42,950 nucleotides of DNA, taken from IMG/VR virus record IMGVR_UViG_2870479586_000005. One strand, 5' to 3'. Position 1 is the stretch's first letter. Every line of letters begins with the position of its first letter. The notes beneath the pieces are model-generated. The model did not search any database, had not been told where the DNA came from, and saw nothing but the letters and a program-made list of their open reading frames with translations. Of the stretch, positions 35,753-42,950 are shown in pieces. Source of the stretch: a virus (taxonomy: Duplodnaviria > Heunggongvirae > Uroviricota > Caudoviricetes). A program made the position numbers and the translations under genes.

Positions 35753-35977
35753 TCAGATCTCCAGAGCTTCGGCTATCTGACGACAACCGGCTTCATAGTC
35801 CGCATTGCTCAGCCCTTTGTCGCGCAACTCGACCTTCCTGGATTCATACTGCTCCCACACCGAAAGCGCGGCAGCCATACGCCCATCAAAAATAGGTTGG
35901 ATCTCTGCAACATGTGCCGGGCGCCCATTCAGGTGCCAGCCGTTACGCCAGGTAATGCGGTCAATATGTCTTAACAT
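35753..35977 (-). CDS. Hypothetical early protein (74 aa)
   Basis: ORF between the YdaT-like and O-like genes. Confidence 0.4.
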   Translation of the reverse strand: MLRHIDRITWRNGWHLNGRPAHVAEIQPIFDGRMAAALSVWEQYESRKVELRDKGLSNADYEAGCRQIAEALEI

Positions 35978-36016
35978 CGGTCTTTCCTCGGTATAAGTTA
36001 AACGCTGGTCAGGCGC

Positions 36017-36552: not shown

Positions 36553-36750
36553 CTAAGCTTTTTCATGTTTTGGAACATCGTAAAAAGTCGGGTCATATTT
36601 CAGTGCTCCATTAGTGATATGGTCGAGTCGAGCTGCTCGCTTTTCAGGAACTGTTGCCCCCCAACGAGTAACCGCCACTTGTGATATACCCAGCACCTTG
36701 GCTGTGGCTGTCTTTGAACCAAAAAAACTAATAACCGTCTCTGTTTTCAT
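36553..36750 (-). CDS. Cro-like HTH repressor (YdaS/Cro family)
   Basis: 65 aa. ..GSKTATAKVLGISQVAVTRW.. HTH. GGAGGA RBS. Divergent from the cI-like gene. Confidence 0.75.
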   Translation of the reverse strand: MKTETVISFFGSKTATAKVLGISQVAVTRWGATVPEKRAARLDHITNGALKYDPTFYDVPKHEKA

Positions 36751-36818: not shown

Positions 36819-37232
36819 ATGAGGATGAAAAATTTGATGCTTAGCGACCGTTTATCTCAAAGACGCAAACAGCTTGGTCTAACCCAACAACAGCTTGCTG
36901 ATATGGTTGGAAGATCGAGTGTGAGCGTTTTTAAATGGGAAAGCGGACAAAATGAACCAAAGGGCCAGAACTTGTTGGCTTTGGCCAATGCACTCAAGTG
37001 TTCTGCCACATGGCTGCTTTTTGGTGACGAAGACCAGGCGCCAACTCCGGTAGACGAATTACCAACAGAGCTGGATTCACGTCAAAAAAGATTGTTAGAG
37101 TTATTTGATTCATTACCCGAGTCAGAAAAAGAAAAGCAACTAATTGAATTAGAAGATAAAGTTGAAAACTTTAATCGTTTATTTGAAGAGTTACTGGTTA
37201 CCAGAAAGAAACTAACCCCCACCAAAAAATAA
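36819..37232 (+). CDS. cI-like prophage repressor (XRE HTH) without an S24 peptidase domain
   Basis: ..LGLTQQQLADMVGRSSVSVFKWESGQNEP.. HTH followed by an acidic coiled-coil tail. At most 137 aa, with no LexA-like Ser/Lys domain. Start could be 36819, 36825 or 36837. Confidence 0.8.
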   Translation: MRMKNLMLSDRLSQRRKQLGLTQQQLADMVGRSSVSVFKWESGQNEPKGQNLLALANALKCSATWLLFGDEDQAPTPVDELPTELDSRQKRLLELFDSLPESEKEKQLIELEDKVENFNRLFEELLVTRKKLTPTKK

Positions 37233-37281: not shown

Positions 37282-37331
37282 TAACTTTTGTTATAAAACA
37301 TCTTGCACATAAAATTACCTTTAGTTATATT
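37282..37331 (+). promoter_or_regulatory. OL operators and PL (TTGCAC-17-TATATT)
   Basis: TAACTTTTGTTA (37282-93) is identical to the OR site. TACCTTTAGTTA (37316-27) lies in the spacer between TTGCAC (37303-08) and TATATT (37326-31), mirroring the PR layout. Confidence 0.5.
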
Positions 37332-38178
37332 CATTCCATCAACAACGCTTACCCAGCGGCAGTTGTTCAGAAACACGTTCTGACAGCCGGAAAGACGGCA
37401 CCAAATTTTGCGCGTCGGCGCCAACACGGTGACAGAGGGAAAGACTTCACCGGCATATGGCACATGTGTCGAAGCGGTCTGGATGGAAGCGGAGCCTTAA
37501 CGCGTTGTCTCCATAGCAGGTAGCCGGAATGTGCAAGCCACAGCCAGGTATGAGCGATTGATTCACCATCAAGGCGATACGGTGTGACCACCAGGGAAGA
37601 GTCCTGGCTACAACACGAGAGCGCACTTCATCGACTCAACTTTGAGCTTTGTCGTTAAATTTTGAAATGGCGGAGTGCGCTCCCGGTTGTGGTGAACAGG
37701 TGTTTAACGGGAACTCCCTGCCCGTTACCCGGTTCGATTCCGGGCGCCCATCATCAATTTGCTGTGTTTAGTCTTTGCCCAGTCCGCACGATGGGCCATT
37801 TTTTCACACAGCCAGGTTTTATCGCTGTGCCTGAGTCCCCAACAGGAGAGGCCAAACCCGCAGCGTGACACCAGGGAAAGACCGGAGGAAGTACCACGCC
37901 TGACCAGCGTTGACCATGAGCCTGACCAGCTCAAAACAGGAAAGACCAGCCCTGTACGGTCGTAATGGAAACATAACGACGCCGGAAACGTAACCGGCAC
38001 CCTTTAGATAGCAAAAGACCCGCACAAGGCGGGCCAGTTACCCCGAACGGCGACCAAACCATTCGGATTTATCACAAGTGACCAAACTTGTGATGAGGAA
38101 AGACCAACGACACTGACGCTATGGAAGCTGATCAATATTCGCTGATCGGCTCTGAGTATACATTACCAAGGAGTCGCT

Positions 38179-38499
38179 ATGGAAGCGCGCACCATCCCAG
38201 TAACACTCTTTATTCATTATGCAACTTCAACTTTCAGCCACGAAAAGCTGCTTGTTGCGACGGTTGATATGTCAAAAAATTTTCCAGACAGGTACATCCT
38301 TCTGGAAAGCCGCGAAATTGAAATTACCGTCAACCAGCCCCAGCCAATCGACATCATCGGTTTACAGGTCGAGCAGCTGCATGAGCAAAAACAGAAAACA
38401 GCCGCCGACGCCCAACAGCGTATTGCTGCTATCGATGACGAAATCCAGCAGTTACTTTGCATCGAATACACGCCAGATACCGATGAAATCCCCTACTAA
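38179..38499 (+). CDS. Hypothetical early-left protein (106 aa)
   Basis: First ORF with an RBS (AAGGAG) after the long leader. Confidence 0.5.
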   Translation: MEARTIPVTLFIHYATSTFSHEKLLVATVDMSKNFPDRYILLESREIEITVNQPQPIDIIGLQVEQLHEQKQKTAADAQQRIAAIDDEIQQLLCIEYTPDTDEIPY

Positions 38500-38529
38500 A
38501 GACCACTGACCTGTAATGAGGAAAGACCA

Positions 38530-38859
38530 ATGACCATTTTTAACGGCTTGTTAGAAGCGAAAAAAGGCGCGCTCAAAAACGGTGCGATCCCGGCGCTGGC
38601 CATCGCCATCGACGCCCCTAACAAAAAAGTTGCCGAGAACATCATCATCGGCAAATTGTGGGAAGCCTACCCTGACCACGGCGACAACTATTTCAAACCT
38701 AAAATCTGGGAGGATGCCCCAGGCCAACCGCGCCCAGGCGTCGGTGAGTTTGATGAGACGTTTGCCACAGAACACAGTTTTGATGGCGAAAAATGGGTAG
38801 TTAACCCCCCGCTGATTCAGATAGCGGTTCAGCAGATATCGCACAGGTTAACGACCTGA
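38530..38859 (+). CDS. Hypothetical early-left protein (109 aa)
   Basis: Preceded by the TAATGAGGAAAGACCA initiation cassette. Confidence 0.5.
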   Translation: MTIFNGLLEAKKGALKNGAIPALAIAIDAPNKKVAENIIIGKLWEAYPDHGDNYFKPKIWEDAPGQPRPGVGEFDETFATEHSFDGEKWVVNPPLIQIAVQQISHRLTT

Positions 38860-40745
38860 TGAAACTGCCTGCTCGTGAACGCTTCGCCGCCGTCCTGCTG
38901 TTCAGCCACGACGCCAACGAAGTCGACAGTGAATTGCTTGCGCAGACGCGTGAATACCTGGAGATGCTCGACAACAGTGATACTAACAGTGAGGATGAGG
39001 TTGACGCGTTTAACCGCATCGTCCTCGATGCCATGGTAGCGTGTAAGCCCATTGAGTACATGCATATTGCTGGATTGAATAATCTGGTACATGCAATTTT
39101 GGCAAGTTGCGATACCCAGGAACAAAACCCGACCAGTTGGACTATCTCCAAATTTATAAAAAAATGGGTAGAGAATCCCGGTAAACGCGATGAAATGCTG
39201 CCGGAGGTAAAACCACAAACAGCATCCGCACGTCCTTACCAACAGACTCACGCCACACTGGATCGTGAAATTGCCTGCGCCCTGTTACCTGTTGCCCCGG
39301 AAAAAATCACCCCCAGCATCCTGAAAGCGGCAGACGAAATAATCAGTCAGGACAGGGAAGATTTTAAACGCTGGTCAATGGCCTTGCGCACAACGGATCA
39401 GATCCTTGCCTATGACCGCGCATCAGTATTCGGTGTTATTCAGAGCGCCCCCGCAAAAGACACGTACCACTTCCCACAATCCCTGCGCAGTCACATCGAC
39501 AACTGGCTGCAAGCTAACGGGCAGCGTGATGCAAATGCTGTTGAAGAGAAGCCAAAGGAAGCAGCACCAAAGGATGATGTAAAAGTCACCAACCACGGCG
39601 GCGGACGATTCTCAATTGATGGGATGATGTCAGAAACATCCTCAAATCAGGGCGAAAAAAGCGAAGCAGCAAATGCTGGAGAACGTAGTTTGCAGCAGTT
39701 GCGTGAGCAGTTTGTCACGCCCCGCCATGTGTATGGCGTACCAGAAAATAACGCCGTATCACAGCGGGAATCTGTAACTGTTATCCTGGAAGAAGAGACT
39801 CCTCCACAAGAAAAACTTAGCGAGCAGGTAAAGGAGCCTGTGCAGAACGTTGACGCGCTGGTTGAGCGGATCCATACCGAAGAGCACCAGCGGCAGAATG
39901 CAATCTCAGCTATCGAAACGGAGTTAAATGACTCCAGTGATACGGATAACCTGGCATTGTGGAAGAACGTATTCAAAACCGATGAGCGTTTCACCAAAGC
40001 TTTCTCTCAGAATGGCGGCGGCACATCCATCAACGGTACTTATATAGCGATGAAAGCGACTCGCGAATTTGGGCCGTTTGGTATTGGCTGGGGTGTAGAG
40101 GTGGTGGAAGAGCGTTTTGATAAAGGCGCACCGATAGTTCGCAAAAAACAGGTTGGTGAAAAAATAGAATGGGATCTGATTCAAGACGGAGTTGGCGGGT
40201 ACCTATGTGAAATGCACCACACCATGAAAGTTAGAGTCTGGTACATATTGAATGGGGTGCGCGGTGAGTCCGAGGCTTACGGATGCACACCTTATATCTA
40301 CGACACTAAATACGGACCAACAAGCGACGGCGAAGCGCCGAAGAAATCCTGGACGGATGCTGTTAAGAAAGCGCTATCCCCTCTCGGATTCAGCGCCGAT
40401 ATTTTCATGGGCCTGTACGACAATCCGGAATACCGCCAGAGGAATAAAGCTGAGTTTGATATCAAGAATGCCAGCGAAAATGCGGAAGATGCTACCCGTC
40501 TGCGTAAGGAACTGGATGAGAAGCTTATCAACGTTGCCAATACGCTGGCCGCCGCGGTAACCGCCAACGAAGTAAACAAGGTATTTGGCCTCATCGCCCG
40601 CGAAGTGGATGTACACCGAAAAGCAGCAGAAGCCAAAGGCGATAAAGAATATTCATCGTATCTGGGATCGCGCCTGCGCCGTATCACCGACATCAAAACT
40701 GAACGCCTCGCCGCCCTCACCGCTGCACAGGAGCAAACCGCATGA
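38859..40745 (+). CDS. 628-aa protein with a C-terminal Rad52/Sak-like single-strand annealing domain
   Basis: ..SINGTYIAMKATREFGPFGIGWGVEVVEE.. and ..KKSWTDAVKKALSPLGFSADIFMGLYDN.. parallel Rad52-family motifs (..FG.NGWS.. and ..KEA.TDALKRALR.FG..LGN.LYD). About 370 N-terminal residues are unassigned. Confidence 0.65.
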   Translation: MKLPARERFAAVLLFSHDANEVDSELLAQTREYLEMLDNSDTNSEDEVDAFNRIVLDAMVACKPIEYMHIAGLNNLVHAILASCDTQEQNPTSWTISKFIKKWVENPGKRDEMLPEVKPQTASARPYQQTHATLDREIACALLPVAPEKITPSILKAADEIISQDREDFKRWSMALRTTDQILAYDRASVFGVIQSAPAKDTYHFPQSLRSHIDNWLQANGQRDANAVEEKPKEAAPKDDVKVTNHGGGRFSIDGMMSETSSNQGEKSEAANAGERSLQQLREQFVTPRHVYGVPENNAVSQRESVTVILEEETPPQEKLSEQVKEPVQNVDALVERIHTEEHQRQNAISAIETELNDSSDTDNLALWKNVFKTDERFTKAFSQNGGGTSINGTYIAMKATREFGPFGIGWGVEVVEERFDKGAPIVRKKQVGEKIEWDLIQDGVGGYLCEMHHTMKVRVWYILNGVRGESEAYGCTPYIYDTKYGPTSDGEAPKKSWTDAVKKALSPLGFSADIFMGLYDNPEYRQRNKAEFDIKNASENAEDATRLRKELDEKLINVANTLAAAVTANEVNKVFGLIAREVDVHRKAAEAKGDKEYSSYLGSRLRRITDIKTERLAALTAAQEQTA

Positions 40746-41541: not shown

Positions 41542-41766
41542 ATGCTGCGATGGCAACCGGGAGCAACTCTGCTCTCCGCATTTGATATCAAAATTGGCCG
41601 ACTGTCGGCCAGCGTCAGGAAACAGGCTGTGACCGAGTCTGATATTGCCCGTGCCTGCAAGGCGGCAGATGACGCAATAAGCTACATAATGAGGAAAGAC
41701 CATGAGAAGCGATCACGACATAATCACCAGAGAAGAAATGGTCGAGCTGACGGGAAGCCCACTTAA
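41542..41766 (+). CDS. Hypothetical protein (74 aa)
   Basis: ATG at 41542 with a GGAGGA RBS. Its 3' end overlaps the next gene by 65 nt. Confidence 0.4.
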   Translation: MLRWQPGATLLSAFDIKIGRLSASVRKQAVTESDIARACKAADDAISYIMRKDHEKRSRHNHQRRNGRADGKPT

Positions 41767-41965: not shown

Positions 41966-42950
41966 CTGGATGCCGCCTCGTGTTTACCAGGGCAAAGCGG
42001 CCTACGAATTCAGGAATAAAGATAACAAAGCGATACGCCTGTGCGCATTGGATGCGCCACGATCAGCCGTATGGCTGGCATATGAAAAAGCGGTCGGTGA
42101 CGAAAAAGAAAGAAATACTTTTCAGGCGCTCGCGGAACAATTCATGACCTCCCCTGATTTTATGGATTTGGCAGTCGAAACCAGGAAAGACTACACAAAA
42201 TATTCCGGAAAAGTTCTGCCTGTCTTCGGGAAGATCGACCCGGATAAAATCAAACCTGAACATATTCGGCGCTATATGGATCAACGCGGTTTATCAAGCC
42301 GAACTCAGGCAAACAGGGAAAAAAGCTTTATGTCCCGGGTATTCCGTTGGGGTTATGAGCGAGGTTATGTCCAGAGGAATCCTTGCCAGGGAGTTAAGCA
42401 GTTTAAAGAGACAGCACGCGAACGTTATATTACGGATGAAGAATATCAGGCCGTTTATGAAGTGTCTCCTGACGTCGTTCGCGTGGCAATGGAGATTGCC
42501 TACTTATGCGTGGCCAGACAGAGTGATGTACTTTCATTGCAGAAAGACCAGCTGTTCAATTCCGGGATCTACATTCGTCAGGGAAAAACCGGCGTTAAGC
42601 AAATCAAAGCCTGGTCGCCTCGTCTGCAGAAAGCGATAGCTCTGGCTCGTTCTCTGCCATTAAAAACGGGAATCAGTAGCCTGTTTGTGATTCATCAAAC
42701 TACCGGTGGCAAGTACACCCGTGATGGTTTTAACTCTCGTTGGCGTGATGTCAAAGCGGCAGCACAGGAAAAATATCCTCATCTGCAAATAGACTTCACA
42801 TTTCATGATCTGAAAGCAAAAGGTATCTCTGATCTGGAAGGCAGCCTGGAAGAGAAGCAAGCAATTTCCGGGCATAAGAACCCACGACAGACAGCTGCCT
42901 ATGACCGAAAAGTTAAAGTAGTGCCCGTAGTTGGTGGCCAGAGAAAATGA
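41934..42950 (+). CDS. int: Tyrosine integrase
   Basis: Phage-integrase C-terminal motifs (..FTFHDLKAKG.. and ..GHKNPRQTAAYDR..). Preferred start MAGKRKN at 41934. The stop is the last codon of the window. Confidence 0.9.
   Translation: MAGKRKNPADNWMPPRVYQGKAAYEFRNKDNKAIRLCALDAPRSAVWLAYEKAVGDEKERNTFQALAEQFMTSPDFMDLAVETRKDYTKYSGKVLPVFGKIDPDKIKPEHIRRYMDQRGLSSRTQANREKSFMSRVFRWGYERGYVQRNPCQGVKQFKETARERYITDEEYQAVYEVSPDVVRVAMEIAYLCVARQSDVLSLQKDQLFNSGIYIRQGKTGVKQIKAWSPRLQKAIALARSLPLKTGISSLFVIHQTTGGKYTRDGFNSRWRDVKAAAQEKYPHLQIDFTFHDLKAKGISDLEGSLEEKQAISGHKNPRQTAAYDRKVKVVPVVGGQRK

Follow-up and report, generated by a model that had tools for sequence, protein, structure and literature searches.

A conserved structured RNA in the early-left leader of an Escherichia coli lambdoid prophage and in other temperate phages of Enterobacteriaceae

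The put RNA of phage HK022 renders RNA polymerase terminator-resistant via the beta' zinc-binding domain, tRNA-punctuated maturation has precedents in the RNase P substrates C4 RNA (P1 and P7) and M3 RNA (phi80), in MALAT1-mascRNA and in the 3'ETS-leuZ small RNA (sRNA), and RprA is an Rcs-induced, Hfq-dependent sRNA of Enterobacteriaceae. Put elements measure about 70 nucleotides (nt), combine two stem-loops with a triplex and follow both the early-left (PL) and the early-right (PR) promoter (PMC9378689), while RprA coexists in vivo with RprAproc, an active processed form that comprises its last 47 nt (PMC9262595). The present analysis concerns the leader between PL and the first gene of the early-left operon in IMG/VR record IMGVR_UViG_2870479586_000005, an E. 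coli lambdoid prophage whose whole analysed stretch of 42,950 nt is hereafter called the window. In this leader, a conserved structured core RNA precedes three further modules: M1, which is a long hairpin; M2, which derives from a tRNA; and a tail homologous to the 3' domain of RprA. What is new here is the core family; the RprA-like module joins a known family, and the tRNA-like element is of a known kind.

A pseudoknotted core RNA shared by three groups of phages

BLAST comparison of the leader with phage genomes found that 37451-37622 has counterparts at 70-77% identity, located in gaps with little annotation, in unrelated phages, namely SPN1S and other epsilon15-like phages, the P1-like phages D6 and SJ46, Tyrion, and Klebsiella phages; P1, P7, phiV10 and mEp390 are further carriers. 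The shared segment forms a structured RNA of about 165 nt with six helices (H1 to H6) and an H-type pseudoknot (Table 1). A 21-mer, GGUAGCCGGAAUGUGCAAGCC (= GGTAGCCGGAATGTGCAAGCC), at 37519-37539 is identical across the first three homologues found by BLAST, and since it then served as the search string for all later loci, its constancy among those is by construction. Exact copies of the 21-mer occur in at least 120 IMG/VR contigs, corresponding to 105 distinct cores, and the core is present in at least 136 distinct loci of temperate phages of Enterobacteriaceae. Among named species-representative genomes, an 18-mer taken from the same stretch was likewise found in Enterobacteriaceae only.

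The fold is supported by extensive covariation. In a structure-blind MAFFT alignment of 42 distinct cores, 95.3% of the cells pair, compared with 30-45% when the partners are slid, and both sides have changed at 13 of the 33 core pairs, a figure matched by none of 500 shuffles. A covariance-model alignment of 79 distinct cores gives 96.1% of cells paired, and compensatory changes fall at 12-13 of the 33 pairs across the alignments. A preliminary description of this sequence had recommended alignment with relatives as a means of distinguishing covariation from codon-like conservation, and the outcome is strong structural covariation. The covariance model of the core (R1) recovers 37442-37617 as the sole copy in the 42.9-kb window (135 bits, E 3e-44) and yields 97 full-length matches in all, at 132-177 bits. 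The Rfam scan advised at the same time places the core in no Rfam 15 family: no match overlaps 37442-37617 at E<=10 with permissive filters on either strand, and at gathering thresholds only isrK, C4 and c4-a1b1 appear, all elsewhere in the window. Searchable full-text literature, queried with the invariant 15- and 16-mers among other terms, yielded no account of it; preprints on Pas-sRNA and on Minerva deal with other elements.

Coding sequences (CDSs) for hypothetical proteins are annotated across the core in mEp390 (gp36, at 3015-3257 of L125), Tyrion and BUCT709. Such CDSs are probably mis-annotations, given that the lengths of core matches among relatives differ by non-multiples of three and that the paired positions covary. 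The plus strand is taken to be the folded RNA because G-U pairs are frequent at fixed positions and because all 28 tRNAs adjoining core loci are co-oriented with the core. We conclude that the core is a real, widespread and functional non-coding RNA, which has gone unannotated, or has been mis-annotated as small hypothetical proteins, in P1, P7, D6, phiV10, SPN1S and mEp390, phages studied for decades.

Genomic settings were tallied on the 129 loci that have an upstream open reading frame (ORF), and three of them cover most loci. In the lambdoid setting (about 55 loci), the core comes after a same-strand gene for a CI-type repressor. One such locus (L055) has the order repressor, terminator, promoter TTGACA-18-TACATT and H1 about 7 nt later, and the distance from the end of the -10 hexamer to H1 is 7-8 nt in each of 15 distinct upstream contexts. 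The P1-like setting accounts for 19 loci, in which the core belongs to the ban operon under C1 control and H1 starts 15 nt past the 3' end of tRNA-Ile(CAU). This spacing, together with the fixed distance from the -10 hexamer in the 15 contexts, indicates that the core has a defined 5' end. In the epsilon15-like setting (about 38 loci), a promoter, the core, M1, tRNA-Arg(UCU) and an intrinsic terminator form a self-contained RNA-only unit on the strand opposite the terminase and portal genes. As far as sequence comparison can tell, conservation across three unrelated phage groups makes it almost certain that the core contacts a conserved host component, and identification of this partner could reveal a new route by which temperate phages manage their hosts.

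The RprA-like tail, the tRNA-like element and a candidate stable-RNA operon

Over 50 nt the tail shares 84% identity with rprA as annotated in E. coli chromosomes, with E 2e-5 in a search of 28 Gb. Matches covering at least 80% of the query occur in 5362 E. coli genomes, and in the band of 80-90% identity all 27 chromosomal matches among those listed fall in rprA. The similarity comprises the 3' domain of RprA, that is, the seed UUGCUGUGUGUAGUCUU and the Rho-independent terminator, and does not extend to a full-length match. Downstream of the core, the seed GCUGUGU(G/U)UAGUCUU and a terminator were found in 42 of the 136 distinct loci, always on the same strand, and the seed itself is under selection because it stays constant beside at least five different terminator stems. 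The 42 seed-bearing loci appear to be of lambdoid type. Small stable RNAs accompany the core in all three unrelated groups: lambdoids pair it with an RprA-like sRNA, whereas tRNAs replace this tail in the other two, tRNA-Arg in the epsilon15-like group and tRNA-Ile in P1. At the lambdoid loci L016, L028, L014 and L052 the resemblance to RprA reaches further upstream than the seed (UAACAACGAAAGCUGUGUGUAGUCUUUGC versus AAACAACGAAUUGCUGUGUGUAGUCUUUGC in RprA), which favours common descent over convergence and raises the question of which came first, rprA or the phage module. The window contains no complement to the seed, so its targets presumably lie in the host. No phage RNA termed RprA-like was found in searchable full-text literature. 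Every motif listed in the preliminary description is indeed present at the position given there, but the terminator at 37777-37804, the RprA homology and the core at 37451-37607 had escaped it.

Between the core and the tail lie M1 and M2, and the region spanning M1, M2 and the tail (37608-37812) has a fold z-score of -4.3. A hairpin of the M1 type begins within 14 nt of H6 in 75 of 82 distinct loci, and its inner stem (the conserved base) covaries between lineages. At L011, L020, L034, L099 and other loci, a module homologous to M1 (AGCGCAC...UUUGUCGUUAA...GGAGUGCGCU) is located 60-140 nt upstream of the core; since an M1 homologue thus precedes the core, instead of following it, in many epsilon15-like loci, the modules have been shuffled.

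The T-arm-like string GGTTCGATTCCGG at 37731-37743, noted earlier from the sequence, proved to be part of M2, in which the T-arm (37728-37744, loop UUCGAUU) is canonical, an anticodon-arm-like hairpin at 37705-37727 carries a 9-nt loop, and the D-arm and CCA end are absent. ARAGORN reports no tRNA or tmRNA gene in the whole window and only noise on M2 modules with relaxed thresholds and introns allowed, while the best Rfam tRNA match of M2 is to tRNA-Sec, at 19.3 bits and below the gathering score of 47. M2 is hence a tRNA-like element and not a tRNA. Its position is occupied in other loci by cloverleaf-like modules closed by GUUGUGGU(G)/(C)ACCACAAC or by a real tRNA-Arg(UCU); in all 12 distinct cases of the latter, the first base of the tRNA falls within the GUU|GUGG motif where M1 ends. 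The 3' edge of M2 (37755) adjoins AAUUUGCUG, which aligns with the start of RprAproc, this start being our own count back from the RprA 3' end.

The reading that best fits this architecture, held at about even confidence, is that the leader is a composite stable-RNA operon with tRNA-type punctuation and an attenuating terminator, and not a put RNA. A transcript from PL would carry, in order, short hairpins, the core of about 165 nt, M1, M2, the RprA-like segment of about 50 nt and the terminator at 37804, where many transcripts would end to give an RNA of about 470 nt. Enzymes of tRNA processing would cut at M2, with RNase P acting at GUU|GUGG and 3' processing following near 37755, and would thereby free a stable RNA composed of the core and M1 as well as an RprA-like sRNA resembling RprAproc. 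The freed sRNA, probably Hfq-dependent and acting in trans, would apply the RprA seed to host mRNAs during induction or infection. Polymerases reading through would transcribe a further structured segment and then the genes for the exonuclease, Gam, Xis and Int, so that the terminator would serve as an attenuator of these recombination and integration genes. The core itself would persist as a separate stable RNA and bind some conserved factor of the host.

Several features weigh against such an operon. P1 itself carries the core alone, without M1 or M2, in the 5' untranslated region of ban, and the core of the window begins about 113 nt past the predicted transcript start, not at it. The Rfam RprA model (RF00034) scores the tail at 37.4 bits (E 0.002), below its gathering score of 70, the two 5' hairpins aligning poorly and the rpoS-activating 5' half being absent. 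A close relative, E. whittamii L133, keeps the core while lacking both the RprA module and the terminator. As M2 is called by neither ARAGORN nor Rfam, cleavage by RNase P is suggested by analogy only, and the constant 21 nt and the pseudoknot of the core could just as well belong to a ribozyme, to an aptamer or to an element that binds polymerase.

A wider proposal, held tentatively and at somewhat below even confidence, is that the core founds a new class of phage RNA acting on a conserved host machine such as the tRNA-processing or tRNA-targeting apparatus or RNA polymerase. It would have spread by module exchange among lambdoid, P1-like and epsilon15-like phages, always sharing its transcript with another small stable RNA, be it a tRNA for a rare codon, a mimic of a tRNA or an sRNA with the RprA seed, and its activity, as a sponge, mimic, ribozyme or elongation modifier, would be unlike that of described families. 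If the leader is a stable-RNA operon, the early-left operon of N-less lambdoids with the core would open with a stable-RNA unit and not with N/nut or put, which bears on the control of early transcription. The exact copy of the second seed of RprA also suggests that the phages carrying it either exploit part of the RprA regulon or were its source, and offers a new angle on the function of RprAproc.

Alternative explanations and the flanking hairpins

One alternative, which seems unlikely, regards the core as a cis-acting elongation or antitermination RNA, either put-like or similar to the anti-Rho leader of rrn operons, that modifies its own polymerase, allowing it to pass the long untranslated leader with its terminator, and replaces N and nut. 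In keeping with it, the core heads repressor-controlled early operons at the position of nutL or putL, a terminator separates it from the first ORF in the window and, by a strict scan, in no fewer than 45 of 100 loci, and the P1 core occupies the untranslated gap ahead of ban. Moreover, PHROGs assignments reveal no antiterminator, N-like or arginine-rich candidate protein among the ORFs of the PL operon, in agreement with the preliminary description, which had noted the lack of an N-like gene after PL. However, the core is single-copy and unrelated to put in sequence, size and fold (PMC9378689). No second copy follows PR in the window, where the gap between cro and the cII-like gene is just 59 nt. 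Model R1 finds no match in the PL and PR regions of HK022 at E<=1, and blastn-short of these regions against the leader returns only a 16-nt cII match and chance 9-13-mers; an inverted-repeat search in HK022 did not delimit putL or putR, and the comparison was made without a put model. The RNA-only units of epsilon15-like phages, running opposite to the neighbouring genes, end at a canonical intrinsic terminator, conservation of the seed together with its terminator implies that termination at that point is used and not suppressed, L133 retains the core without the terminator, and in P1 the ban operon begins with ~800 untranslated nt that do not contain the core. The put-type antiterminator put forward in the preliminary description therefore does not fit, in view of the single copy, the lack of similarity to put, the normally terminating units, the seemingly used terminator and the arrangement in L133. 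The core may still act against Rho only, a variant untouched by the arguments from intrinsic terminators.

A second alternative concerns the small hairpins around the core. The 5' leader as such has a fold z-score of -1.3, which is not significant alone. Its GAAAGA hairpins are compensated in L018 and BUCT708, where the stems read GCCCG/CGGGC and GCGG/CUGC around an unchanged GAAAGA loop; these hairpins are limited to the phage lineage of the window, whereas the core is not. Beyond the terminator, the hairpins described earlier at 37959-37980, 38043-38066 and 38071-38094 all belong to the minimum-energy fold, the z-score for 37807-38180 being -3.4, and the segment could be compared across four lineages (the window; L018 with BUCT708; L046; E. 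whittamii L133). Hairpin B has four entirely different stems under an identical GACCAA loop, hairpins A and C are compensated across the lineages, and the RBS-like (ribosome-binding-site-like) GAGGAAAGACCAA is retained, with an ATG after it in two of the four. The abundance of GACCA motifs had also attracted attention: the placement of GACCAA in hairpin loops is notable, but GACCAA is not enriched window-wide (14 found, 20 expected). On the minus strand, hairpin C (38017-38035) reads as an intrinsic terminator, GGCCCGCCTTGTGCGGGTC followed by TTTTGCT, and gives weak Trp-leader and isrK-like Rfam matches. No convincing minus-strand promoter was found downstream of this terminator, and the equivalent of hairpin C in L046 has its U-tail on the plus strand. 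The possibility of a CsrA sponge was dropped, as GGA motifs, of which at least 14 were noted by eye, would number about 13 by chance in 840 nt.

The repeats of the leader have a wider distribution in the prophage. All five copies of GGAAAGAC reported earlier (37389, 37438, 37875, 37939 and 38097) and both copies of the 11-bp direct repeat GCCTGACCAGC were verified. Window-wide, GGAAAGAC occurs 10 times against 1.18 expected, a count reached in no shuffle, and all 10 copies are sense to the early operons. Of the five copies outside the leader, four form part of genuine RBSs that read gaGGAAAGACC(A/G)ATG (33262 and 35980 on the minus strand, 38520 and 41693 on the plus strand); the fifth, at 42184, has no start codon after it. 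Two of these four are preceded by (G)CCTGACCAGCG, and the resulting cassette, (G)CCTGACCAGCG...gaGGAAAGACC(A/G)ATG, stands in front of real early genes at 35977(-) and 33258(-). GGAAAGAC and GCCTGACCAGC thus represent a recurrent intergenic RBS junction cassette with ORF-less copies in the leader. Cassette sites were recorded at 33258-33300 (-), 35977-36016 (-), 37898-37947 (+), 38095-38107 (+), 38500-38532 (+) and 41685-41704 (+). The cassette, present in both the PL and the PR operon, may serve as a linker for recombination or as a common site of translational control.

From these observations the small purine-loop hairpins (GAAAGA and GACCAA here, UGAAAA in relatives) might be viewed as boxB-like sites for an unrecognised phage or host RNA-binding protein, perhaps one analogous to N or one that regulates translation and has GGAAAGACCAAUG RBSs as further binding sites. 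This is a distinctly improbable explanation, and one that covers the flanking hairpins only and is compatible with a stable-RNA operon. Its attraction lies in the invariant loops on fully compensated stems, in the use of GGAAAGACC(A/G) as RBS by four or more early genes across both operons, and in the GAAAGA and UGAAAA loops, which we take to resemble lambda boxB loops. It is contradicted by the absence of any arginine-rich candidate among PHROGs assignments of the PL operon and of any boxA (CGCTCTTA or GCTCTT(T)) in 37301-38200, by the presence of many hairpins rather than one per operon, by their confinement to one phage lineage, unlike the core, and by the lack of overall GACCAA enrichment.

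About as improbable, or slightly more so, is a core that functions as a riboswitch or self-processing ribozyme setting the fate of the terminator or the ends of the RNA. The pseudoknotted fold with its constant 21-nt stretch and the location of the core upstream of the terminator in lambdoid leaders would suit such a role, as would two mutually exclusive pairings available to GCACAU, either in H1 or with AUGUGC at 37529-37534. The latter pairing is, however, invariant on both sides and so gains no support from covariation; 170 nt and two autonomous domains separate the core from the terminator, the core is not overlapped by any expression platform, and it precedes a tRNA in epsilon15-like phages and a helicase gene in P1.

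Finally, it is very improbable that the leader consists of functionless decayed coding sequence and recombination scars, for although ORF-less junction cassettes, the 16-nt identity with HK022 cII at 37343-37358 and the 503-nt insertion tolerated in SE11-type prophages would agree with decay, the strong covariation and cross-group conservation, the fold z-scores of -4.3 and -3.4 and the core lengths differing by non-multiples of three do not. The decayed genes suggested in the preliminary description thus survive for the GGAAAGAC and GCCTGACCAGC repeats, as ORF-less cassettes, but not for the structured, covarying parts: decay is essentially refuted for 37451-37808 and 38018-38107 and possible for 37886-37958. 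The 16-nt identity (CAACGCTTACCCAGCG) is a perfect match between 37343-37358 of the window and 2038-2053 of the HK022 sequence (L127; E 3e-4 in a small search). Its HK022 partner is the helix-turn-helix (HTH)-coding part of a 98-aa ORF at L127 1962-2258, labelled cII-like by our own assignment since the record is unannotated there, and the identity may represent a scar of old recombination.

Genomic context and comparison with known systems

A query of 971 nt around the leader is found at 99% identity or more in 4 complete E. coli genomes, and some match is present in 660 of 5426. PL (TTGCAC-17-TATATT) and the first RBS-bearing ORF at 38179 are located where the preliminary description had placed them. 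A promoter scan reports an overlapping version of PL (TGCACA-16-TATATT), the transcript would start at about 37338, and operator-like palindromes TAAC-N4-GTTA flank PL and also occur near PR. By PHROGs, the PL operon comprises phrog_2479, a split exonuclease, a Mu-Gam-like protein, a small ORF (phrog_2482) for which we know of no assigned function, xis (excisionase) and int. The exonuclease gene (phrog_2489) is frameshifted, with ORFs at 38530-38859 and 38859-40745 and a C6 run at 38805-38810; a near-identical E. coli locus (L001) has C7 at the same site and one intact exonuclease CDS of 738 aa, so the split is either a sequencing error or a genuine pseudogene.

Related phages were searched for an N-like or other ORF aligned with the leader, and no such ORF was found. 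The leader stays ORF-free in relatives at about 73-78% identity, and PGAP annotates no CDS between the repressor and the 38179 ORF in the ~99%-identical E. coli locus. Together with the compensated hairpins and the covariation of the core, these ORF-free relatives bear out the earlier view of the stretch as non-coding, and, of the possibilities then raised, that of a regulatory RNA is supported in the sense that the leader is a functional non-coding RNA. The only ORFs found in leaders of relatives lie inside a 503-nt moron insertion in otherwise 98%-identical E. coli prophages of SE11 type (L129 1652-2154); it sits between window positions 37380 and 37396, indicating that the leader accepts insertions outside the core, and contains a 74-aa ORF (+) and a 77-aa ORF (-). 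The TUM13936 leader has a different insertion, of about 650 nt. Two small frames were rejected as genes, namely the 26-aa 'STTLTQRQL' frame, whose start precedes that of the transcript and which a 2-nt indel disrupts in L018, and a small upstream ORF after 38097, whose ATG is present in two of the four lineages only.

Elsewhere in the same prophage, 31453-31650 (-) gives gathering-level Rfam matches to isrK (80 bits), C4 antisense RNA (74.5 bits) and its a1/b1 target c4-a1b1 (52.9 bits), and is an RNA immunity or antirepressor module of P1/P7 or Gifsy type. The leader and immunity region of BUCT708 (L128, OM816834, recorded as a 'Stenotrophomonas' phage) and BUCT709 are about 72-80% identical to the window along the entire leader, with the same gene order, and the recorded Stenotrophomonas host appears doubtful.

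Table 1. Coordinates of the features of the early-left region in the window
Feature	Position	Strand	Details
cro-like gene	36553-36750	-	immunity region
HTH repressor gene	36819-37232	+	own terminator hairpin follows, just upstream of PL
PL-type promoter TTGCAC-17-TATATT	37303-37331	+	-35 37303-37308; 17-nt spacer; -10 37326-37331
5' leader hairpins	37367-37448	+	UCAGAA-ACACG-UUCUGA 37367-37383; GCCG-GAAAGA-CGGC 37386-37399; GAGG-GAAAGA-CUUC 37435-37448
Conserved structured core RNA	37451-37607	+	about 165 nt; six helices and H-type pseudoknot
Core H1	37451-37459/37463-37471	+	
Core H2	37475-37478/37523-37526	+	
Core H3	37479-37481/37517-37519	+	extension variable
Core H4	37537-37539/37573-37575	+	
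Core H5	37558-37562/37568-37572	+	
Core pseudoknot	37564-37567/37581-37584	+	
Core H6	37591-37595/37603-37607	+	
M1, long irregular hairpin	37611-37689	+	CAAC/GUUG closing; inner stem AGCGCACUUC/GGAGUGCGCU; variable tip
M2, tRNA-derived element	37689-37757	+	degenerate acceptor-like stem 37691-37695/37751-37755
RprA 3'-domain homologue	37759-37808	+	seed UUGCUGUGUUUAGUCUUUGCC, then intrinsic terminator
Intrinsic terminator	37777-37804	+	stem 37777-37781/37792-37796; U-run 37799-37804
Read-through leader, part 1	37807-37998	+	hairpin 37807-37829; GAAAGA-loop hairpin 37871-37885
Part 1, cassettes	GCCTGACCAGC 37898 and 37920; GGAAAGACC 37939	+	two ORF-less copies
Part 1, hairpins	37959-37980 and 37981-37998	+	
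Read-through leader, part 2	38018-38107	+	hairpin C 38018-38036; hairpin A 38043-38066, loop CGACCAAA
Part 2, continued	38071-38107	+	hairpin B 38071-38094, loop GACCAA; then GAGGAAAGACCAA 38095-38107
Start of first PL-operon gene	38167-38181	+	Shine-Dalgarno AAGGAG 38167-38172; start codon 38179; 106 aa, phrog_2479

Compared with described systems, the leader shares with HK022 put a structured, cis-encoded RNA directly after PL of an N-less lambdoid phage, but its core is of about 165 nt, with six helices and a pseudoknot, is present in one copy, and also occurs in P1 and in the terminator-ended RNA-only units of epsilon15-like phages. With nutL and N of lambda it has in common the position in the operon and the small GC-stemmed hairpins with purine-rich loops; it differs in having neither an N-like gene nor boxA, in possessing several hairpins instead of one, and in a loop string that is at the same time the RBS spacer of the phage. 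Like GOLLD and ROOL, the core is a structured phage RNA with variable peripheral domains that recurs beside tRNA genes, yet it has no Rfam match to either, is much smaller, and belongs to early repressor-controlled units of phages with Enterobacteriaceae hosts. As in tRNA-punctuated RNAs, a tRNA or tRNA-like element abuts a structured RNA and, in lambdoids, precedes an sRNA, a geometry that would let tRNA-processing enzymes set both ends, although M2 lacks a D-arm and CCA end and cleavage is proposed here by analogy alone. RprA itself has its own Rcs-dependent promoter, whereas the phage tail would be the end of a structured, PL-driven RNA of about 470 nt, with terminator stems that vary among phage copies and without the rpoS-activating half; what the two share, at 84% identity, is the single-stranded seed followed by a Rho-independent terminator.

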